Positions 4,533 to 57,139 are shown, counted from the stretch's first letter. The stretch is DNA of 64,000 nucleotides from a phage (GCA_014685065.1 GCA_014685065.1_3930.1), one strand, 5' to 3'. Program-made: numbers and translations. Notes: a model not told the origin generated them from the sequence alone.

Positions 4533-5720
4533 TTAAGCTGTTCTCTGCCATACATACAGTACGAAGGATGGCTGTTCAATGTTGAAAGCTTGTCCACCAC
4601 CAACACTGTTCGTGTTTCCACTATGCGTATGCTCAGAAGAAGAAACTGTCACAGTACCATTGTGCGTATGCGAACCAATACCAACTGTGTGACTGTGAGC
4701 ACCAATACCCACCATATGGTTGTGGTCACCAGTTGTGTTAGTGGTAACACTGAAAGAGTGGGTGTGCGCACCAGCGACTTCACAGACAACATCTGCTGAG
4801 TACCACGATTGGTCATTCCTTGAAGACCAGACCATTGCAGGTCTCTCCGACAGACCACCACCTGCTTCATAAGTCAATCTGTGGTTGTGAGCACCAGCAG
4901 CACTTGTTGACCCACTACCAACGTGATTGTGGTTACCAGTTGTGTTAGTGGTCTTTGTTCCATAGTCAAAAGAGTTGGTAGTCTTAGTTCCATAATCAAA
5001 AGCTGAGATTGAAACAGTTGCATTATGAGTATGACCACCACCACTAAGAGACACAGAGTGTGAGTGTTGAGGCATGTTATTAACTGACAAAGTGACAGTT
5101 GAAGCACCAAATACAGAACCTGCTGGCCTTGTATCAGAGTCATAACCAACCAACGCCCTACCTTTTGAAACTAACTCCCAAGTACCTCCACAAATTAAGT
5201 ATGTAGAAGGGTTTGCAGAGTTCATAGAAAGATGGATAGTACCTACTGGATAAGAAGCCTGAACAGCCTTGTACAAGTTATTTACTGCTCTTGCTGTAGC
5301 ATACTTATCTGCATCTTCATTATACAGGTTAGATGTTGTCCAGTTCTGAACATTACTTAAACCAACCTGTGCCTTAGTTGTATTGTGTGGGTTACTCTTG
5401 TCCTTGATATGTTGCTGGACAAGGTTATTAACCTCTTCTGAAGACATAATCTGTAGATTTGCTCTTGCCTCAGCTACATTAACAATATCTGATAAGTTAT
5501 TTGCAGCGACTAACTGAAGAGCATTAATAACATTATCTAAACCAATTTGTGTTTTAGTAACACCATGAGGGTTATTTTTTAGGCTTGAGTGTGGGGCAAG
5601 TAATTGCTCAAGAGTACATCTCTTATCCTCAATACCCTGCTTAAGATGGAAGATATCACTAAGGTCAATTGGTAAGGCTGCTTGAGGCAAGGCACTAATT
5701 TGAATTTCACCTACTGCCAT
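4533..5720 (-). CDS. tail fibre protein (second receptor-binding paralogue) with HxH repeats
   Basis: 395 aa; duplicated SAFDYGTKTTN unit; HSHSV, GNHNH, GAHNH, GAHTH, GDHNH, GAHSH, GSHTH motifs; C-terminus ...VWQRTA shared with the 794-aa fibre. Confidence 0.65.
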   Translation of the reverse strand: MAVGEIQISALPQAALPIDLSDIFHLKQGIEDKRCTLEQLLAPHSSLKNNPHGVTKTQIGLDNVINALQLVAANNLSDIVNVAEARANLQIMSSEEVNNLVQQHIKDKSNPHNTTKAQVGLSNVQNWTTSNLYNEDADKYATARAVNNLYKAVQASYPVGTIHLSMNSANPSTYLICGGTWELVSKGRALVGYDSDTRPAGSVFGASTVTLSVNNMPQHSHSVSLSGGGHTHNATVSISAFDYGTKTTNSFDYGTKTTNTTGNHNHVGSGSTSAAGAHNHRLTYEAGGGLSERPAMVWSSRNDQSWYSADVVCEVAGAHTHSFSVTTNTTGDHNHMVGIGAHSHTVGIGSHTHNGTVTVSSSEHTHSGNTNSVGGGQAFNIEQPSFVLYVWQRTA

Positions 5721-5722
5721 TA

Positions 5723-13738
<8,016 letters not shown>

Positions 13739-34219: not shown

Positions 34220-34591
34220 ATGAAAGCTAAGAGTGCAAAAGACTTTTATTGCTTCCTACAATCCTATATCAATTCCGTGCAAAATGGTGAAAGATACAAC
34301 CTTAATGATGTTATCCCAACACCTTTGACATGGAGACTCAGTAAATGGCCTGAAGAAGACATTACACCAACAAGCAAACAACACACCTACAAACCTGAAA
34401 TCAATATTCCAGACTCTGAGAACCTATTATATCCAATGTTCCATATTGTTGGTCTTGGGAGATTCCTTATGGATATTCAGTATGTAATTGGTAAAGGTTA
34501 TAAGGTTAAAGGCATTGTTGTTGGTGATGTATCTCCACACCACAAAGGTTATTTTAGACTAAACGCACATTTAGAGGCTAAAAAGAAATGA
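34220..34591 (+). CDS. hypothetical protein (paralogue of N-terminal domain of next gene)
   Basis: 123 aa; shares motifs with 34588-35472 N-terminus (YKP, ELLY, FMDLQY.I..GK). Confidence 0.5.
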   Translation: MKAKSAKDFYCFLQSYINSVQNGERYNLNDVIPTPLTWRLSKWPEEDITPTSKQHTYKPEINIPDSENLLYPMFHIVGLGRFLMDIQYVIGKGYKVKGIVVGDVSPHHKGYFRLNAHLEAKKK

Positions 34592-35472
34592 TTAAAGCAA
34601 AGACTTACCCAGACTTTAAAGAGTTTGTGAAGGGCTTCATTGCAAACGTAAAGGCTGGTAAGAGATATGATTTTAGAACATATCAAGAGGCTATTTTACC
34701 ACTTACCTATAGTTCATATTGGCCTGAAGCTGATATTGCAGAAGTTGAGAAGTTTGACTATAAACCAGACTACAAAGTTCCATTTAGTGATGAATTGCTT
34801 TACAGTGTTGGTGCACAGATGAGAACTGCTGATTTCTTCATGGATTTGCAGTATGCAATCATCAATGGTAAAGATGTTGACACAATTTACTGTGAATGGT
34901 TGGCAAGAGTTAAGCCGTTCTCAATGTTGAATGCTAAGTTGAAAGATGTCATCACACCACCATCAATCACTCAGCAACCAACAAACCAAACAGTTAATGA
35001 GGGTGATACACTCACTCTAAGTGTTCTCGCAACTAACGCCACTGGATATCAGTGGAAGAAGGATGATGAGGATATCTCAAGTGCCACTTCTGCAACTTAC
35101 ACAAAACAGTCAGTAGCACCTTCTGATGCTGGCTCATACACTTGTGTTGTATCTGGAGAGGCTGGAACAAGTGTTACCTCAGATGCGGCAACAGTTACTG
35201 TGAATGCACTTCCAGTAATCACTCAACAGCCAGCAAATCAAGAAATCACTGAAGGTGAGACCTTAACGCTGAATGTTGTGGCTACTGGTGCAACAGGTTA
35301 TCAGTGGAAGAAAGGTGAGGAAGTCATCCCAGACGCAACTGCTGCAACTTACACCAAAGAAGGTGCAACCGCTGCTGATGCAGGAAGCTACACCTGTGTA
35401 GTTACTGGTGCAGGTGGCTCTGTAACATCTAATGCAGCAACAGTTACTGTTAACCCAGCAGGGGAGGCATAA
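34588..35472 (+). CDS. paralogue-domain protein fused to two tandem Ig-like domains
   Basis: 294 aa; C-terminal half has two ~85-aa repeats (ITQQP.NQ...GYQWKK...DAGSYTCVV.G..G.VTS.AATVTVN) with Ig I-set-like pattern. Confidence 0.55.
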   Translation: MIKAKTYPDFKEFVKGFIANVKAGKRYDFRTYQEAILPLTYSSYWPEADIAEVEKFDYKPDYKVPFSDELLYSVGAQMRTADFFMDLQYAIINGKDVDTIYCEWLARVKPFSMLNAKLKDVITPPSITQQPTNQTVNEGDTLTLSVLATNATGYQWKKDDEDISSATSATYTKQSVAPSDAGSYTCVVSGEAGTSVTSDAATVTVNALPVITQQPANQEITEGETLTLNVVATGATGYQWKKGEEVIPDATAATYTKEGATAADAGSYTCVVTGAGGSVTSNAATVTVNPAGEA

Positions 35473-35936
35473 TGCAACTCTCAAGAAAAGGTTTAGAAGC
35501 TATTAAGTTCTTTGAAGGTCTGAAGTTAGAGGCTTACGAAGACTCTGCCGGAATCCCAACAATCGGGTATGGTACAATCCGTATTGACGGAAAACCTGTT
35601 AAGATGGGTATGAAAATTACTGCTGAACAAGCTGAACAGTATCTTCTTGCAGATGTTGAAAAATTCGTTGCAGCAGTGAATAAAGCCATCAAGGTTCCAA
35701 CTTCTCAGAACGAGTTTGATGCACTTGTAAGTGAAACATACAACATTGGTATCACAGCTATGCAGGACTCTACATTTATCAAGCGCCACAACGCTGGTAA
35801 TAAGGTAGGTTGTGCAGAAGCTATGCAGTGGTGGAACAAGGTTACAGTCAAAGGTCAGAAGGTCACTTCAAACGGCCTGAAAAACAGACGTAGAATGGAA
35901 GCTGACATTTATCTTGACAGTGTATATCCAAAGTAA
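35472..35936 (+). CDS. endolysin, T4-lysozyme-like (GH24)
   Basis: 154 aa; N-terminal EG..L.AY.D..G..TIGYG catalytic motif of phage lysozymes. Confidence 0.75.
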   Translation: MQLSRKGLEAIKFFEGLKLEAYEDSAGIPTIGYGTIRIDGKPVKMGMKITAEQAEQYLLADVEKFVAAVNKAIKVPTSQNEFDALVSETYNIGITAMQDSTFIKRHNAGNKVGCAEAMQWWNKVTVKGQKVTSNGLKNRRRMEADIYLDSVYPK

Positions 35937-49447: not shown

Positions 49448-50233
49448 TTAGTTCTTTGCGTCTAAGAAGGTAACTTCTGGTGAAGAGAAGATTGCCTCAA
49501 TACCCTCATCAGTTCTTGCATAGATATAAGCTTCTGCATCACTACCAAATGTTACAGCAATTCTGTGATTGCTCTTTGACAGGTGGGTAACTAGAGCGTT
49601 ACTTAGAGACATCTTTTCAACCGGAGGGTTACTTTGATGTGTCTTACCTTTTCTTCGTCTGAAGAGGGTAACTGCGTTATCTGTGAACACTGCTACACCT
49701 GCAAAGTATTCTGGTTCACAGTAGTTCTTCCAACCTGAGAGTAACTTGTGGTACATCTCTCCTTCATAGACATATAGATAAACATCTACACTCTTCATCA
49801 CCTGATTGATGATAACTGTGACGGCTTGAGGGTCAAGTCCACCGATACCTGCACCAATCATAGGTAAACCAACTTTCTTCAACTGATTAACTTCACAGTA
49901 TCTGTTAAGTTGCTTCAAAGACGACTCTAAAGCACTGTATCGGGCATCTTTACCAGTCTTAAGCTGAGTGTAAAGGTTAGCTATACGACCTTGTTTTAAG
50001 CGTGCTACAGAGAAATTACCTAGTAAATTCTCACAGGGTTTGTGACCTATACCACCTGCATAGAGATAAACTTCTGTATCGGTCTCATATGCTTTTGGGT
50101 AAAGTTTAGAAATCTTGTCAGCGATACCTGCACCCATTAGGTTCATGCAGTTACAACCATGACCAATGATGTCAAACTTACCTTTATCAAATGCAGCAAA
50201 GATATCACCATTGATGATTTTTACAATACCCAT
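49448..50233 (-). CDS. macro-domain protein (TARG1/DarG-like ADP-ribose hydrolase fold) with C-terminal extension
   Basis: 261 aa; N-terminal 150 aa has macro-domain signatures (IINGDIF, DIIGHGCNCMNLMGAGIA, LPMIGAGIGGLD) resembling TARG1-type macrodomains. Confidence 0.55.
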   Translation of the reverse strand: MGIVKIINGDIFAAFDKGKFDIIGHGCNCMNLMGAGIADKISKLYPKAYETDTEVYLYAGGIGHKPCENLLGNFSVARLKQGRIANLYTQLKTGKDARYSALESSLKQLNRYCEVNQLKKVGLPMIGAGIGGLDPQAVTVIINQVMKSVDVYLYVYEGEMYHKLLSGWKNYCEPEYFAGVAVFTDNAVTLFRRRKGKTHQSNPPVEKMSLSNALVTHLSKSNHRIAVTFGSDAEAYIYARTDEGIEAIFSSPEVTFLDAKN

Positions 50234-50654: not shown

Positions 50655-50955
50655 AGTTTACCTTCTCAGTTAGTTCATATAAATCAACATGCTCAATACT
50701 GTCAATGTTGATATCAATCTTTTTGAAACGCTCCATCACTTCGTTATCAGTCATCCATATCAGACACCAATGATTCTGGATGGATTCTTCAAGAAGGTCA
50801 ACACAATCTTTAAAGGTTTTTGTATCACTCCTTGTTCCTACTACTGCGATTGTTCCATATAGCCACTTACCATTGCCATAAGATACTTGTGCTACGCCAA
50901 CTTCTTTACCTTTCTCATAGTAAACGGCTACAAAGTCTCTTCCATTAATCTGCAT
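50629..50955 (-). CDS. hypothetical protein
   Basis: 108 aa ORF. Confidence 0.45.
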   Translation of the reverse strand: MQINGRDFVAVYYEKGKEVGVAQVSYGNGKWLYGTIAVVGTRSDTKTFKDCVDLLEESIQNHWCLIWMTDNEVMERFKKIDINIDSIEHVDLYELTEKVNYESNTSQR

Positions 50956-50957
50956 AG

Positions 50958-51227
50958 TTACTTCCTCGTTTTAAGAACTGCTAAGATTTCTTTAGAATCT
51001 GGTAAGAACCATGTGTAGTGATTCTCTTTGATTTCTGGATGAGTGTCAACCTTTATTTTGCAATCTTTACCAACATGTTTAAGCTGTGCTGTGACACCTT
51101 GCATAAAGATATGGCACATCACATTATCCATAATGGTTGGTGAGAAATCAATTCGCATATAAGTCTCTTTTGGTCGTGGTAACAGTAAGTACCCTTCTAC
51201 GTAAAAAGTATCTTGATTCTCTGTCAT
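50958..51227 (-). CDS. hypothetical protein
   Basis: 89 aa ORF. Confidence 0.45.
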   Translation of the reverse strand: MTENQDTFYVEGYLLLPRPKETYMRIDFSPTIMDNVMCHIFMQGVTAQLKHVGKDCKIKVDTHPEIKENHYTWFLPDSKEILAVLKTRK

Positions 51228-51493
51228 TGCTGCTTATTCCCTAATAAAATCATGTCAATAAGGTTGTTAGCTTTGATTGTGCACTGGTAAAAGCCGTCAC
51301 GATAGAACTCAAGGGCTGCTGCTACATCGCTGCCTGTGTTGCCTTTGATGATATACCGTGATTCTTCTTGGGTGTACTTATCACCCTCACTTACTTGGGA
51401 GTTTTTGAATGTACTGCTCACTTTGTTCGTTGAACACCCTGACATAGTTATCAGTAACACAAACATTATAAAACTCTGGCTTAGTTTTTTCAT
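51224..51493 (-). CDS. putative outer-membrane lipoprotein (o-spanin candidate)
   Basis: 89 aa; signal peptide with lipobox-like ITMSGC; starts inside the preceding TM-protein gene in another frame (overlapped spanin layout). Confidence 0.4.
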   Translation of the reverse strand: MKKLSQSFIMFVLLITMSGCSTNKVSSTFKNSQVSEGDKYTQEESRYIIKGNTGSDVAAALEFYRDGFYQCTIKANNLIDMILLGNKQQ

Positions 51494-51734
51494 ATGTTAG
51501 TACCTCTTTTGTATGCTTATTCTTAGCAAGCACATCTTTCAAATCATTTTTGTAATTGGTGCTGAGTGTGGCTAAACCTTCCTGATAAGCATCTTTAGCA
51601 ACACTTATTAGTTTCTCATTATTTAGCTCAGTTTCAGCAACTTGATAGTCTCTGTAAGAGTATCCTCCCCAGACACCTGCACCAACTAAGAAAACAATTA
51701 TGAAAGTAGCTTGACAGAACTCTTTAAATGTCAT
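51387..51734 (-). CDS. putative i-spanin (N-terminal TM helix plus helical periplasmic domain)
   Basis: 115 aa; TM segment FIIVFLVGAGVWGGY then coiled-coil-like sequence; overlaps lipoprotein ORF. Confidence 0.4.
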   Translation of the reverse strand: MTFKEFCQATFIIVFLVGAGVWGGYSYRDYQVAETELNNEKLISVAKDAYQEGLATLSTNYKNDLKDVLAKNKHTKEVLTYEKTKPEFYNVCVTDNYVRVFNEQSEQYIQKLPSK

Positions 51735-51749
51735 TTAACAATCTCCTAA

Positions 51750-51776
51750 AATGAAAAAGGCTCCCGAAGGAGCCTG
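51750..51776 (-). terminator. rho-independent terminator
   Basis: Minus-sense GGCTCC-TTCG-GGAGCC followed by UUUUUCAUUUU. Confidence 0.6.
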
Positions 51777-51786
51777 TATCTTAACC

Positions 51787-52251
51787 TTAACCGAGGACTT
51801 TAGCAAGGATATTCGCAGCCATCGAAGAAGCTTTTGCAGCAGCAACTACGCCAGCTTTGACAGTGCTATCCTTAATAGCAGATACCGTTGCAGCATCAGT
51901 AAAGAGATAAGTGATTGTTTTAGAACCACTTGTAAAGGAAAGCATAAGAGTAGTTTCCAGATTGAAAGAGCGATACGGAGCACCTTCTTTAACGATACCT
52001 TCAGCACCTAACTCTGAAGCCTTGCCCATATCATAGATAGTCATCAGGTTTTCTTTGTGTGCAGTAGTTGAACCAGCACCTTTTACGTGTTTTTTAACAT
52101 TCAATAATGCACGATATTCACGAATGCTGCCATCAGCTTTTACATTAACAGCACGAAAAATTTTACCTTCAAAGTTACCTTGAATCATTTTACGAACTAT
52201 TGCAGATTTGTTTACCGTATCGTCCAGTGCTACCGTAATGATATTGTTCAT
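51787..52251 (-). CDS. hypothetical protein
   Basis: 154 aa; followed by terminator. Confidence 0.5.
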   Translation of the reverse strand: MNNIITVALDDTVNKSAIVRKMIQGNFEGKIFRAVNVKADGSIREYRALLNVKKHVKGAGSTTAHKENLMTIYDMGKASELGAEGIVKEGAPYRSFNLETTLMLSFTSGSKTITYLFTDAATVSAIKDSTVKAGVVAAAKASSMAANILAKVLG

Positions 52252-52261
52252 AAGTTTTCTC

Positions 52262-52957
52262 TCAATGTTTAACTAACATGGTTTTAATGTGTGGAAGGAT
52301 TCTGTTCACCTTCTGCACATTCTTCTCTGTGTCTTCTATAAAACATACTATATTAAAGTAAGGCAGGATGCAAGACTGAATCATCCTCACTTTCAAACTT
52401 TCTGCACTTATAGAGTTAGTTCCAAAACCACGCATAAAAAGCATGTAGTCATGCTCTATGTTATGCCTTAAAAACATCTCAGTAGGTATTCTCTGAGATT
52501 CACCTCTCGCTGTCAAGAGTCCAATGGCAGCATGATTAGCAATTGCATCAATAATACTAAAAACATACGTTGGTTTTGCTCTTACAGAGTCAAGAAGATT
52601 AGTGTACTGTGAGAATGACCCATCAGTCAATTCCGTTGAGCAATCTTCGTGATTAAAATTTGTAAGAACACCATCAATATCTGCTAAGATGAGGTTACCT
52701 TTTTCTACAAGGTCTTTATTGACTATGACTAAACTATCACGACTTACCCCTATAGCTTGCCCAGTCTCTTTATCTACAGCATTCACAATTGGCTCTGATG
52801 TGTGGAACTCTTCAAGTGAACATACAACTTCTCTTGCAGTGTCTTCAAAATCCCTACACTGTTCTGGAGTCCATACACAGGAATCAAGACCTAACTCATG
52901 AGGATGTAAGTCATAAGCATGACACAGTACTTCATCAGACTTTCTTAATTTTTTCAT
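52262..52957 (-). CDS. HAD-superfamily phosphatase-like protein
   Basis: 231 aa; motif ILADIDGVLTNF resembles HAD motif I (DxDG[VT]). Confidence 0.4.
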   Translation of the reverse strand: MKKLRKSDEVLCHAYDLHPHELGLDSCVWTPEQCRDFEDTAREVVCSLEEFHTSEPIVNAVDKETGQAIGVSRDSLVIVNKDLVEKGNLILADIDGVLTNFNHEDCSTELTDGSFSQYTNLLDSVRAKPTYVFSIIDAIANHAAIGLLTARGESQRIPTEMFLRHNIEHDYMLFMRGFGTNSISAESLKVRMIQSCILPYFNIVCFIEDTEKNVQKVNRILPHIKTMLVKH

Positions 52958-53483
52958 GATTTACCTTAGAAATGTTTGTTGCAAATTCACATTGAGCAAT
53001 TACTTTCATGTTGTTATAGACATCTTGAGAATACTTCTTAGCTTTAGGGATTCTGTACGAATACCCAGCATTATATGATGCTAAAACTTTTTGTAAAGTC
53101 TTCTTTGACTTTGGCTGACCATGCACCTTTGTCCAAAACTCAAGCTCTTTGTGAGTTTCCTTCGCAGCATAATCAAAGTCTCTTAAGAGTTTCTTTTTAG
53201 CCACATTAGGGCTAATTTTGTTACGCTTTACAACAGTCTTCAAGTGATTCTGGAAAATACCATAATCATGTGTCTTTTTATTCTCTACCTTCAGACCTAA
53301 CTCTGACTCTTGTAAGGCTATAGCAGCTAGAGTGATACCCCAACCTTTACCCATGTTGTTCTCACCATACTGGTAAGCTTTTAACATGTTTACTTTTTGG
53401 CTAATTGATAGCTCTGGGCAGTCAACTGCATAAGATAAGTGTGCTGTAAACATTAAGCACAAACCTAGAATCAATTTCTTCAT
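52935..53483 (-). CDS. secreted lytic transglycosylase-like (lysozyme-like fold) protein
   Basis: 182 aa; N-terminal signal peptide; catalytic-type ALQESELG and DYGIFQ motifs typical of SLT domains. Confidence 0.45.
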   Translation of the reverse strand: MKKLILGLCLMFTAHLSYAVDCPELSISQKVNMLKAYQYGENNMGKGWGITLAAIALQESELGLKVENKKTHDYGIFQNHLKTVVKRNKISPNVAKKKLLRDFDYAAKETHKELEFWTKVHGQPKSKKTLQKVLASYNAGYSYRIPKAKKYSQDVYNNMKVIAQCEFATNISKVNHEKIKKV

Positions 53484-53583
53484 TGGTTCTCCTGTTTAGT
53501 TTATCGTGACAACAATTATACAGCACTCTGCACAAAATACAAATAAAAAAGGCCGCCGAAGCAGCCTTTTAAGAAATTACTTA

Positions 53584-54693
53584 TTAGATTTCACGTTTAC
53601 GCTGAGAGATAAGTTCACCAGCAGTGCCAACGATGACATGCAAAGCTTCAGTCTTGCCATTCCATGCTTTCAGTACTTTACGTTGATTATCAACGATTGC
53701 TGCAACTTCATAACGAGACGAGCGCATCTTCATATCGTTGTAATCAGTTGGTACGGATACAACGTCTCGTGGATGGACACGAACCTTCAGAATTGTATCA
53801 CCTGAGAAGTAACGAACATAATCCCAAGCACCAACGTGAAGACCTTGAGAGCAAGTCACGTTACGGTTATTATCAACCATCCAACGTGGCATTTCTACAA
53901 TGTTACCCAAATCATTAGGTACTTTGCAGGTGCGGGAGTCAACCAGCTTGCCTTCACGAGTAGAGACTTTCTTCCAACCAATGATGTAGCCTTCTTCATC
54001 AATTTCAACATCAAGGTGAGATATGAATCCCCAAAGTTGTTCTACAGAATCTTTAGATGGGTTTTCCATCAGTTTTTCGAAGAACATTACAAGTCGTTCA
54101 AAACCTTTATCACCAGTCTTCATCATGTGAAGGATACGGTCAACCAGAGTAGAACGCATCTCAACAGCACCGTAGAATAGCTTATCACCTTTGATTGTGA
54201 TAGCTCCCTGCGTGAAGTTTTCGATAGACTTACGAATGTTCATCAGTTCAAAGGCTTTCTTGAACTCACCTTTCACAACATGAACTACAATCTCTTGATA
54301 GTTCGGATGAGTAGACTCAACAATTTCAGATTCTGGACCGTAAGTCATAATTACAGAGTCGCCAGTAATCATGTACTCAATCTTGTCATCTTTCTGCATA
54401 GCTTCGTGCAGTTTATTTACTGGAGCTTTCTGTACAGAATCTTTAACAACCTTTTTAACTGGCTTGTCAGCTTTCTTTTTAAAGGTCTTAGCAACTTGCT
54501 TCAAAGTCTTCGTAGCTGGTTTAGAAGCTACCTTTTTCTTACCTTTTAAGGTTGCTTCATGACGCTCTACAGCACGACCAACTGAACGGGTTGAAGTATT
54601 GAACTTCTGTGCGATAGCTGTTTTAGTCAGCTTACCTTCTTTAACCAGTTCGTAAATTTCTGCGTCAATCTGTGCTTTAGTTTTAGTAGTCAT
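53584..54693 (-). CDS. rIIB: rIIB-like protein
   Basis: 369 aa directly downstream of rIIA-like gene; Lys-rich N-terminal region; assignment mainly by synteny. Confidence 0.4.
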   Translation of the reverse strand: MTTKTKAQIDAEIYELVKEGKLTKTAIAQKFNTSTRSVGRAVERHEATLKGKKKVASKPATKTLKQVAKTFKKKADKPVKKVVKDSVQKAPVNKLHEAMQKDDKIEYMITGDSVIMTYGPESEIVESTHPNYQEIVVHVVKGEFKKAFELMNIRKSIENFTQGAITIKGDKLFYGAVEMRSTLVDRILHMMKTGDKGFERLVMFFEKLMENPSKDSVEQLWGFISHLDVEIDEEGYIIGWKKVSTREGKLVDSRTCKVPNDLGNIVEMPRWMVDNNRNVTCSQGLHVGAWDYVRYFSGDTILKVRVHPRDVVSVPTDYNDMKMRSSRYEVAAIVDNQRKVLKAWNGKTEALHVIVGTAGELISQRKREI

Positions 54694-54772: not shown

Positions 54773-57139
54773 TTAATCGTAAATTGTAGTCCCTTCTGGA
54801 ACACACTTCACATCAAAGCCTAAGAACTTACTCACTTCAATAGGTGACACTTTATTCCAATCTAAATGAGAAAGCAAGAAGTTCTCTTGTTTTCTTTTTG
54901 AAAGGTAGTTTGTCACCTTAATGACCATGCGGTCACCAGCTTTCTTAATTTTCTTGTACAGCTTTGTATCATTGTCAAGGCATTCTTTCAAAGTTTGCAA
55001 TCTACTAACAGTGTAAGTGTATGCAAACGGTGCAGCAACGTATTGGATTTTACCGAACATTGCCTCTACAGCCTCTTCATTACCTTCTAGGAAGATAGTT
55101 TTGTTTGTATCCCGTGAATAGCAATAACCACGAGAAATCTTCCTATTATTGAATGTAAAGTTTCTGGCAATAATCCAGCTACTTGTAAGGTCAAGAACAC
55201 CATTCATGTAGATGCGTGTCATATACCTGTTATGATTAATCCAATGAACATCAGTTAAGCTGTCATTCAAGAGCTTCTCATCTACTTCAATCCAGTCTTC
55301 TGGTATCTTTTTCCAATTTGCTTTTCGGAAAACATAGACTGTCTTTCCAATAACATTAGCAACTGACTTAGCTACATCTTCTGGGGATGAGCAAAAACAT
55401 CTACCATCAACTGTGTCGCCTACTGCCTTGATATAAAGCTGAGACTCTTCAATTGTGTCTAAGTCCTCTGACACCTCTTTGTAGGAGGCTACACCTTCTG
55501 CTGGAACAGCTTTCCAGAGTTTTACAACACCTCTTACAGCTTCTTTACGCTGGTAATGGTGTTCCTTATCAGACATTTTCACAATCTTTAACAAGCTTTT
55601 ATCAAGTTTGTGCAGATTGATTAAGTCATCTAACTCTTTTTCAGTCGAGAATACAAAGACAATACCATTGTATCTGTGAAACAGACTAGACTCACTTGCA
55701 TAGTCTCGACATGCACCACGCAAGATTTGGTTACGCCCAACAGTCTTCTCAGTGCCATTTTTATTTCGACGGTCATTAATCACGAACAAAAACTGTCCAA
55801 TCTGGCTTTTGCGCATTGCACCAAAGATGTTGAACATGCTTGCCTCTTGAGTGTAGGATAGTGCTGTTGCACGAATCTTACTCTCTAAAGAGTTAAACTT
55901 GACATAAGCAACTGGGTCATAAAGATAATCTACTTTAGGGATATTGTTCCCGTTCCTATCAACCTTAATATTACCTTTACCGTCACGTTCGTAAATGACT
56001 GAGCCGTCTTCTGCGTAGATAATTCCACGACGAATGTTTAGCAATTCTTCTTCCAGAGAATCAAGCTTAACGCCACCCCACTCTAGCTTTGGACACACAG
56101 CATTAAACATCTCTCGTGAGTTCAAACGTAACTCAGCATAAGCCTGTGCAGCATCCATGAGTGTAGGTTGGCTATTAACTTTCTTGATAACATCCTTTGT
56201 AATGGCTTCAGTTATCTTTTTAGTAGCCTCAATGATAACATTTTTTGTCGTGTCATTCATCTGCAATGCTTCACGAGAAGCTGCAATAGCAACTGAACCA
56301 ATAGGCATGTAGATGTTTACAAGGTCTACGCTCCTACGGAAAAACTCTGGCAAGACTTTGAAGAAATCATCACCAAGTAACGCTTCCATGTTCACTGGAT
56401 AGGCAATGTTACCCATCACCACATTAAACTCTGTCCTGTTATCACTAGAACGCCAGCTGTGCTTATGAATCATGGCATCATAAACACCTTCTTCACGGGC
56501 AATTACGTTCATATCTGCTAATACATCGTCGTACTCAATATTACTTTCTGGTTTTACAGTGAAGTATGAGTACACATTCCCAGCTTCTTCAAAGAACTTT
56601 GAGATACGGTGGTCAGCAACTGCCACACGTACAGCTAAACCATTAGGTTCTTTTGTTTGGTTAGTTGTCAGCTTAGTTACTTGAGGGATACCATTCTCAA
56701 GATAAACAGAGTACTTATTAACAACACCGTCAACATAACTAGATACTGTGAATGACTGAGCAATTGCAAATGGTGACTTTGAGCCGATACCCATTGCACC
56801 AATGTAGTCATTAGAGTCATTCTTCGTAGAAGCTCCATAGTTTAGGTACAAACTCATAACTTTATCATGAGTCAATCCAGTTCCAAAATCACGAACTTCG
56901 AAGTAAGGCTCAAAACGAGTAGGTAAATGCACATGGAATGGGATGTTCTCTTTTCCAGCTTCTTTCTGAGCATCTACTGCGTTACATGACAGTTCACGAA
57001 TCACTGCCCTTTCTTTAAAGGTATATACACCAGAACTCAAAAGGCTGAACATCTCAGGTGTCATTGTAATCTGTGCTTGAGACGTCTCTAAAGAAGTTGA
57101 ACTCTTAATCACTTCTGCGTGGTCATTTACCATGCGCAT
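54773..57139 (-). CDS. rIIA: rIIA-like protein with GHKL-type ATPase N-terminus
   Basis: 788 aa; N-terminal Bergerat-fold N-box-like motif (VIRELSCNAVDA) and G-rich loop (GAMGIGSKSPF). Confidence 0.55.
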   Translation of the reverse strand: MRMVNDHAEVIKSSTSLETSQAQITMTPEMFSLLSSGVYTFKERAVIRELSCNAVDAQKEAGKENIPFHVHLPTRFEPYFEVRDFGTGLTHDKVMSLYLNYGASTKNDSNDYIGAMGIGSKSPFAIAQSFTVSSYVDGVVNKYSVYLENGIPQVTKLTTNQTKEPNGLAVRVAVADHRISKFFEEAGNVYSYFTVKPESNIEYDDVLADMNVIAREEGVYDAMIHKHSWRSSDNRTEFNVVMGNIAYPVNMEALLGDDFFKVLPEFFRRSVDLVNIYMPIGSVAIAASREALQMNDTTKNVIIEATKKITEAITKDVIKKVNSQPTLMDAAQAYAELRLNSREMFNAVCPKLEWGGVKLDSLEEELLNIRRGIIYAEDGSVIYERDGKGNIKVDRNGNNIPKVDYLYDPVAYVKFNSLESKIRATALSYTQEASMFNIFGAMRKSQIGQFLFVINDRRNKNGTEKTVGRNQILRGACRDYASESSLFHRYNGIVFVFSTEKELDDLINLHKLDKSLLKIVKMSDKEHHYQRKEAVRGVVKLWKAVPAEGVASYKEVSEDLDTIEESQLYIKAVGDTVDGRCFCSSPEDVAKSVANVIGKTVYVFRKANWKKIPEDWIEVDEKLLNDSLTDVHWINHNRYMTRIYMNGVLDLTSSWIIARNFTFNNRKISRGYCYSRDTNKTIFLEGNEEAVEAMFGKIQYVAAPFAYTYTVSRLQTLKECLDNDTKLYKKIKKAGDRMVIKVTNYLSKRKQENFLLSHLDWNKVSPIEVSKFLGFDVKCVPEGTTIYD

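Follow-up and report, generated by a model that had tools for sequence, protein, structure and literature searches.

A putative overlapped spanin pair and a probably exported T4 Vs.1-family enzyme in a Felix O1-like phage genome

Does a phage that already encodes a GH24 endolysin carry, elsewhere in its genome, both a spanin pair and a second muralytic enzyme of the same purpose? This question is raised by the region 50958–53483 of GCA_014685065.1_3930.1, a stretch of phage DNA 64,000 nt in length (the window). According to the original prediction, two open reading frames (ORFs) of this region form an overlapped i-spanin/o-spanin pair, a third ORF nearby encodes a secreted transglycosylase-like protein, and the lysis functions are dispersed, with two muralytic enzymes that are possibly redundant. 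The analysis described here makes it very likely that the region encodes a two-component overlapped spanin and an exported enzyme of the T4 Vs.1 family, and that this enzyme is accessory rather than a second endolysin. The spanin pair and the gene encoding the SLT-like protein are on the minus strand throughout. The region 50900–53600 shows 99.1–99.2% identity with Felixounavirus genomes, for example that of Escherichia phage ekra. Matches were found in 258 phage records, of which most are from Felix O1-like phages (Ounavirinae) and 255 cover at least 80% of the region. To judge by these similarities, the window is the genome of a Felix O1-like myophage (Felixounavirus). The spanin pair, the dispersed lysis genes, and the SLT likeness of Vs.1 were all known or annotated before and contain nothing new; the remaining question of note is what the Vs.1 family does.

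The i-spanin gene (51387–51734, minus strand, 348 nt) encodes a protein of 115 aa with an N-terminal transmembrane anchor, a periplasmic domain, the conserved C-terminal motif EKTKPxFxNxCxTxxYVxxFNE, and Cys92. Its only hydrophobic stretch comprises residues ~7–25 (the maximum in a 15-residue Kyte–Doolittle window is 2.14), and the remainder of the protein is hydrophilic. The protein matches PHROG 1152 ‘Rz-like spanin’ with E = 8e-42. Both the hydropathy and the PHROG match confirm that this ORF has one N-terminal transmembrane helix, as had been predicted. The Shine–Dalgarno sequence AGGAG (51743–51747, minus strand) is located 8 nt before the ATG at 51734, and the same string is given for Felix01 in SpaninDB.

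The o-spanin gene (51224–51493, minus strand, 270 nt, 89 aa) starts within the i-spanin gene in another frame and ends beyond the i-spanin stop codon. The Shine–Dalgarno sequence of this gene, AAGAGGT (51502–51508, minus strand), precedes the ATG at 51493 by 8 nt and falls within the part coding for the i-spanin. The N-terminus of the protein, MKKLSQSFIMFVLLITMSGC, fits the PROSITE-type lipobox pattern (MFVLLITMSGC). The lipoprotein signal MKKLSQSFIMFVLLITMSG thus ends with TMSG immediately before Cys20, and the mature part of 70 aa contains Cys71. Serine occupies position +2, and lipoproteins with this residue at +2 are sorted to the outer membrane. The coordinates and the lipobox pattern agree with the claim that an ORF carrying ITMSGC begins inside the i-spanin gene in another frame.

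The two genes share a dual-coding overlap of 107 nt (51387–51493, minus strand), in which i-spanin codons 80–115 and o-spanin codons 1–36 are read in different frames. The o-spanin is more than a chance ORF, since tblastn found it at a coverage of at least 80% in all of the 336 matching phage records. When the window is compared with three Mooglevirus genomes, the overlap has a nucleotide identity of 0.88, as against 0.71–0.79 for the single-coding parts, and in the part that encodes the o-spanin only, 16–22 synonymous and 12 non-synonymous changes can be noted. The conservation of the overlap, together with the excess of synonymous changes, is a signature of two protein-coding frames, and this pattern of substitutions indicates purifying selection on both of them. 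The Mooglevirus relatives keep both frames and both cysteines, and the lipobox of their o-spanins is LMSGC.

A pair of this kind has already been catalogued. Felix01, FO1a, and UAB_phi87 are listed in SpaninDB among the phages with overlapped two-component spanins (Kongari et al. 2018). The Felix01 entry (‘ovl’) gives the i-spanin at 5330–5678 and the o-spanin at 5571–5841, with an overlap of 107 nt, and proteins of 115 and 89 aa, the mature o-spanin being 70 aa in length (Kongari et al. 2018). The layout of the Felix O1 spanin (NC_005282.1 p014 and an unannotated o-spanin) is identical to that of the window, with genes of 348 and 270 nt and the 107-nt overlap, and the i-spanin of the window is identical to the Felix01 i-spanin of SpaninDB in 113 of 115 residues, only two substitutions being present. 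For practical purposes, the window pair is the Felix O1 gene pair. Given the identical layout and this level of identity, its detection is a rediscovery of a catalogued pair. The pair is also annotated as i-spanin and o-spanin in ekra, Meda, Moogle, Mushroom, Sf phages, and many others. The predicted overlapped layout is therefore upheld by the match with PHROG 1152, by the Felix O1 layout in SpaninDB, and by the annotations in relatives.

The practical value of the comparison is that many GenBank records of this group mis-start or miss the o-spanin. In some of them it is truncated (73 aa in ekra, 65 aa in HP1 and LinBro) and the lipoprotein signal is lost; in other records, the o-spanin is called hypothetical or is omitted. 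The o-spanin of the window (51224–51493) was compared with the truncated versions L001 4325–4546, L007 3025–3222, and L002 3325–3522. In one published comparison, a Felixounavirus is described as having ‘only the i-spanin’, which is probably an annotation artefact. An o-spanin homologue with 47% identity is encoded by OK283618.1 (Listeria phage LPML1, 87 kb), and records labelled as Campylobacter and Staphylococcus phages match the Felix O1-like region at the DNA level. The host labels of such records look doubtful because a Gram-positive host needs no spanin. In the metagenomic protein P0036 (136 aa, from a 933-nt contig), residues 1–37 of the i-spanin are fused to the beginning of the pseT-like protein, whose gene is upstream in the window; such a fusion is probably either a chimera created during assembly or a variant from which the intervening genes have been deleted.

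Homologous spanin pairs were found in the Kuravirus phage Paul and in the P2-like Yersinia phage vB_YenM_324. The i-spanins of the window, Paul, and vB_YenM_324 have in common the C-terminal motif EKTKPxFxNVCxTDxYVxxFNE, and their o-spanins the motif G..A.ALExYxDxYxxC...N.L. The homologue of the o-spanin in Paul is annotated with a LipoP SpII score of 18.03. In vB_YenM_324, the pair directly follows the holin and endolysin genes, and the upstream frame contains ...LLMNMSGC. The i-spanin residue Cys92 and the o-spanin residue Cys71 are conserved in Mooglevirus, in Kuravirus, and in the P2-like phage. Periplasmic cysteines for intermolecular disulfides are near-universal in spanins (Kongari et al. 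2018), and the conservation of these two residues fits the rule of disulfide-stabilised spanin complexes.

The same comparison bears on another explanation of the 89-aa protein, namely that it acts on its own as an outer-membrane lipoprotein and not as a spanin subunit, for instance in superinfection exclusion of the T5 Llp/Cor type, and that its overlap with the i-spanin is due to chance. It is true that its mature part is long (70 aa), proline-free, and not Rz1-like, that PHROG 4180, to which it belongs, has no assigned function, and that the pair adjoins neither the endolysin nor a holin in the window genome. However, across Ounavirinae and Kuravirus the lipoprotein gene always accompanies and overlaps an Rz-like i-spanin gene, and in the P2-like phage its homologue is part of a holin–endolysin–i-spanin–o-spanin cassette. 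In addition, the protein weakly matches the spanin PHROG 456, a periplasmic cysteine is conserved in both partners, and the curators of SpaninDB classed the lipoprotein as an o-spanin. An independent lipoprotein is accordingly a very improbable explanation, and the o-spanin assignment is retained.

When the pair is compared with known spanins, a common topology can be noted. Lambda Rz/Rz1 and T4 PseT.3/PseT.2 likewise consist of a type II inner-membrane protein and an outer-membrane lipoprotein, with periplasmic cysteines. The T4 spanin genes, like those of the window, are located apart from the holin and endolysin genes and near a pseT-like gene; this shared closeness to pseT may be coincidental. 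The gene architecture is overlapped in the window, whereas it is embedded in lambda and separated in T4, and unlike the lambda/T4 paradigm, the o-spanin of the window has no proline-rich region and its i-spanin has no predicted coiled coil. Homology of the pair to T4 PseT.3/PseT.2 was considered and rejected, as a BLASTP comparison detected no similarity beyond the signal peptide, which points to a different spanin family. Since no similarity is detectable, extrapolation from T4 to the window rests on analogy. In view of this result and of the proline-free mature o-spanin, the spanin family of the window has the topology of the lambda and T4 paradigms with a different sequence. A literature search revealed no report of the complementation of lambda Rz/Rz1 defects by the Felix O1 pair.

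From the work on lambda Rz/Rz1 and T4 PseT.3/PseT.2, we infer by analogy the following mechanism of membrane fusion. The i-spanin would be anchored in the inner membrane through its N-terminal helix, and the o-spanin would be cleaved between TMSG and Cys20, lipidated at this cysteine, and sorted to the outer membrane. The periplasmic C-terminal parts of the two proteins would bind each other, with disulfides via Cys92 and Cys71 probably stabilising the complex, which would bridge the periplasm while trapped in the peptidoglycan mesh. Once the cytoplasmic GH24 endolysin, given passage by a holin, has destroyed the wall, the spanin complexes would be free to fuse the inner and outer membranes and thus complete the lysis. 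What the sequence itself shows is the anatomy of the pair, with its topology signals, overlap, and conservation.

The endolysin that this scheme involves was predicted at 35472, and the prediction proved correct. The gene (35472–35936, plus strand) encodes a GH24 (T4 lysozyme-type) endolysin without a signal sequence, which matches Pfam Phage_lysozyme with E = 9.1e-41; in the lysis pathway, this is the main muralytic enzyme. The gene is ~15 kb from the spanin genes, and the pair is therefore not linked to a lysis cassette. Linkage of spanins to the holin and endolysin is typical, not obligatory. Scattered lysis genes had already been published for Felix O1-like phages: the genome announcement of Meda describes dispersed lysis genes and a holin that was not identified, and for Mushroom a T4-like lysis system was reported. 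The dispersal of the lysis functions in the window, as originally predicted, is consistent with these earlier reports.

Immediately upstream of the endolysin gene, a 294-aa ORF (34588–35472, plus strand) contains two near-identical repeats of ~70 residues, TLTLSVLATNATGYQWKK and TLTLNVVATGATGYQWKK. These repeats resemble Ig-like domains, and the ORF may encode a capsid or tail decoration protein.

The third ORF of the region (52935–53483, minus strand) encodes a lytic-transglycosylase-like protein of the Vs.1 family, 182 aa in length, with a putative signal at residues 1–19, a GH23/SLT domain, Cys22, and Cys165. The Sec-type signal peptide MKKLILGLCLMFTAHLSYA (codons 1–19, 53427–53483, minus strand) was recognised from its sequence and hydropathy, with the predicted cut after SYA and before the following VD. 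The protein has the catalytic pair Glu59–Ser60, G75-x-x-Q78, and Y137-N138-x-G140, and carries ALQES, YGIFQ, and SYNAG. The description of this protein as one with a signal peptide and SLT-type motifs stands, being supported by the N-terminus, by these three motifs, and by the family profile. BLASTP indicated full-length homology to T4 Vs.1 (32% identity over residues 1–155, E = 2e-16). T4 Vs.1, a protein of 181 aa encoded by an ORF between regB and vs, has the same size, a signal peptide, SLT motifs, and a non-structural location of its gene. The neighbours differ, being rIIB and the pseT-like gene in the window and regB and vs in T4, and the Cys22/Cys165 pair of the window protein is absent from T4 Vs.1. 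In the records of Mushroom (KP143762), pertopsoe (MT074479), and JK45 (MK962757), the feature at this position is named ‘endoribonuclease’ or ‘protein RegB’; these names were probably carried over from the T4 neighbour regB.

The family is large. A tblastn search with the Vs.1-like protein matched 2124 phage records, including those of T-even phages, Ackermannviridae, and Kolesnikvirus, and an exhaustive profile search revealed 1268 cluster representatives (E up to 1e-3), nearly all of 160–200 aa with a median of 179. The orf114 of phage CBA120 is annotated as Vs.1-like. A signal-peptide-like N-terminus is present in 128 of the 150 best family representatives. In an alignment of 151 members, Glu59, Tyr137, Gly140, and Tyr151 are invariant (151/151); Ser60 is found in 145 sequences and is otherwise replaced by Thr, Gly75 in 143, and position 78 is occupied by Gln in 90 sequences and by His in 53. 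Of the 74 sequences with Cys22 and the 79 with Cys165, 71 have both residues. This co-occurrence suggests a disulfide and, consequently, an oxidising, periplasmic location of the protein.

The family profile reaches EtgA and goose-type lysozymes, and the protein has the lysozyme-like alpha-helical fold of the goose-lysozyme/Slt70 type. A direct sequence search of the PDB with the Vs.1-like protein gave no match, and no meaningful match was found in NCBIfam for any protein discussed here as part of the finding. Like the window protein, EtgA of the type III system of enteropathogenic Escherichia coli is a small (150–190 aa), Sec-exported, single-domain GH23 enzyme; IagB, IpgF, VirB1, and P19 are further specialised secretion-system transglycosylases of this kind. 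Unlike EtgA, the window enzyme is encoded by a phage, with no secretion-system genes nearby, and the likeness is at the level of fold or superfamily. Besides, Asp73, located after the catalytic Glu59, varies within the Vs.1 family: of the 151 sequences, 80 have Ser at this position and 53 have Asp. The window enzyme is thus similar to the secretion-system transglycosylases in size and architecture, and its membership in that group is unsupported. In comparison with the catalytic domains of the bacterial lytic transglycosylases Slt70, MltC, MltE, and MltF (family 1, PF01464), it is pared down to one minimal domain and lacks both a lipid anchor and any accessory domains.

On the strength of the invariant residues and the N-terminal signal, it is very probable that the Vs.1-like protein is exported and active as a muramidase or lytic transglycosylase. 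The GH23 family also includes the hydrolytic goose-type lysozymes, so the reaction may be hydrolytic or non-hydrolytic. The enzyme would be exported to the periplasm by the Sec pathway upon synthesis and independently of a holin, its fold would probably be stabilised by a Cys22–Cys165 disulfide, and it would most likely cleave the bonds between N-acetylmuramic acid and N-acetylglucosamine by means of Glu59.

Could such a protein be a second, holin-independent endolysin of the signal-peptide or signal-anchor-release (SAR) type, redundant with the GH24 enzyme? Its muralytic fold with an intact catalytic Glu is compatible with this, several GenBank records call it a ‘putative lysin’, and in some Felix O1-like phages a holin was not found. 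Nolan et al. (2006), who noted the SLT likeness of Vs.1, suggested ‘some role in cell lysis’ for vs.1. This likeness has been on record since 2003–2006, and a literature search on Vs.1 function returned only the paper of Nolan et al. (2006) and no experimental study. However, the hydrophobic core of the N-terminus is ~13 residues long and is followed by SYA and V, as expected of a cleaved Sec signal and not of a SAR domain. The SAR-endolysin variant of this explanation was rejected for the same reason, the hydrophobic stretch being short and followed by a signal-peptidase-type site. The Sec signal implies export that does not depend on a holin, and an exported, unregulated endolysin would be expected to cause premature lysis.

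The location of the gene argues in the same direction. It is found in the rIIB–pseT block of non-structural, T4-early-like genes and not among the late genes, on the strand opposite to the block of the GH24 endolysin, and Vs.1-family genes are among non-structural genes in every lineage examined. Their neighbours are rIIB and pseT in Ounavirinae and Kolesnikvirus and regB and vs in T4, and the CBA120 gene adjoins gene 46. As for T4 genetics, the transposon screen HIDEN-SEQ showed that vs.1 is non-essential, 46 of 52 sites being hit, while the genes for the endolysin (e), the holin (t), and the i-spanin (pseT.3) are essential and the loss of the o-spanin gene pseT.2 results in a strong fitness defect. 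The e gene is essential despite the presence of vs.1, so Vs.1 is no substitute for the endolysin, at least in T4. The Sec signal, the non-structural neighbourhood, and T4 genetics thus do not support the suggested redundancy of two muralytic enzymes, and a second endolysin appears unlikely. Gene context and, by analogy, T4 genetics lead us to infer that the Vs.1-like enzyme is an accessory wall remodeller.

The gene neighbourhood also bears on the possibility that the SLT-like protein is a virion-associated wall degrader that aids tail penetration, as T4 gp5 and T7 gp16 do. A small free-standing protein with a secretory signal would leave the cytoplasm, where virions are assembled, and the protein is encoded among non-structural genes. 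In a cryo-electron microscopy paper on the Felixounavirus Bas63, a transglycosylase is mentioned only for an unrelated bacteriocin. This explanation is hardly credible, the accessory wall remodeller being preferred.

Whether the accessory enzyme has a task altogether separate from lysis is a further question. The Vs.1 family is kept by thousands of large virulent phages, among them Tevenvirinae, Ackermannviridae, Ounavirinae, and others. We regard a distinct non-lysis role during infection as a tentative and rather doubtful proposal. If it is true, the enzyme might remodel the wall locally for the assembly of spanin complexes or other envelope structures, loosen it so that the cell can enlarge, or interfere with envelope-based defences or with superinfecting phages. 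As a large family of predicted exported proteins with intact catalytic residues, Vs.1 is a reasonable target for studies of how virulent phages manipulate the envelope before lysis.

Several observations weigh against the interpretation of the region as a spanin pair accompanied by an accessory exported enzyme. The calls of the signal peptide and of the lipobox are based on patterns and hydropathy. As for the spanins, proline is absent from the 70-aa mature o-spanin, unlike lambda Rz1, and the BLASTP comparison with T4 PseT.3/PseT.2 described above was negative. The periplasmic domain of the Felix01 i-spanin is given in SpaninDB as 66% helix, and a coiled coil is not predicted for it (Kongari et al. 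2018). The AlphaFold2 model of the i-spanin is helical and has a low confidence, with a predicted local distance difference test score (pLDDT) of 53, and a search with this protein returned close relatives only. With a model of this quality and matches limited to close relatives, a helical periplasmic part of the i-spanin, as had been predicted, is plausible at most. A tblastn search of the window with T4 T for a T4-type holin yielded only a chance match (E = 4.7).

As for the enzyme, its score against the Pfam SLT profile (PF01464) is 18.9 bits, below the gathering threshold of 21.3. T4 Vs.1 passes this threshold with 25.1 bits, and 14 of the 15 relatives of the Vs.1-like protein match the profile at E < 0.01, the best of them at 8e-12. 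The dispensability of vs.1 was seen for T4 on a laboratory host, and the enzyme may still have a lysis-related function in the Felix O1-like group or when other hosts are infected. Finally, the timing of expression of the Vs.1-like gene was deduced from its neighbourhood and from a weak sigma-70-like promoter.

This promoter candidate is a TATAAT -10-like hexamer (53515–53520, minus strand) upstream of the Vs.1-like gene; its -35 match is weak and it is tentative. Phage ASO1A has an annotated promoter at the corresponding position, and a stricter consensus promoter scan did not report the hexamer. A terminator-like hairpin found by the scan after rIIB (53547–53570, minus strand) bounds the unit that starts with the Vs.1-like gene, and this terminator is also annotated in ASO1A and Meda. 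Another terminator-like hairpin, AGGCTCCTTCGGGAGCCT followed by a T run (51758–51775, minus strand; terminator scan), is located directly upstream of the ribosome-binding site of the i-spanin gene. An equivalent terminator is annotated in ASO1A and Meda and also before the homologous spanins of the unrelated Kuravirus Paul. Since this strong hairpin abuts the ribosome-binding site (51741–51757), there is no room for a promoter between them, and a scan of 51776–51900 on the minus strand for a promoter upstream of the spanins gave no site. Possibly, spanin expression depends on read-through of the terminator. Downstream of the pair, the next ORF (50958–51227, minus strand, 89 aa, PHROG 4391) has an ATGA start that overlaps the stop codon of the o-spanin gene, an arrangement that suggests translational coupling between the two.

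All these genes belong to a longer series on the minus strand. First in the local transcription order is rIIA (54773–57139), and it is followed by rIIB (53584–54693), the post-rIIB terminator, and the SLT-like gene. Next come the pseT-like gene (52262–52957) and a 154-aa ORF (51787–52251), the latter being located between the pseT-like gene and the terminator that precedes the i-spanin gene. The 154-aa ORF is conserved (PHROG 2267) and has only faint matches to Sm-like/SH3 beta-barrel families. The pseT-like gene is named ‘polynucleotide kinase’ (PHROG 3970) in relatives and consists of two ORFs in phage Meda. Its product has only the DxDG motif of HAD phosphatases (DIDGVL), the P-loop being absent, and its similarity to T4 PseT is restricted to this motif; the protein may be phosphatase-only.

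Downstream of the o-spanin gene, past several small ORFs, a gene at 49448–50233 (minus strand) encodes a protein of 261 aa with an N-terminal macro domain (Pfam Macro, E = 1e-7). This protein is 35% identical to T4 Tk.4 (E = 3e-24), which was identified in a 2025 preprint as AdfM, an anti-DarTG2 counter-defence factor. In comparison with Tk.4, the macro-domain protein of the window has ~100 extra residues at the C-terminus.

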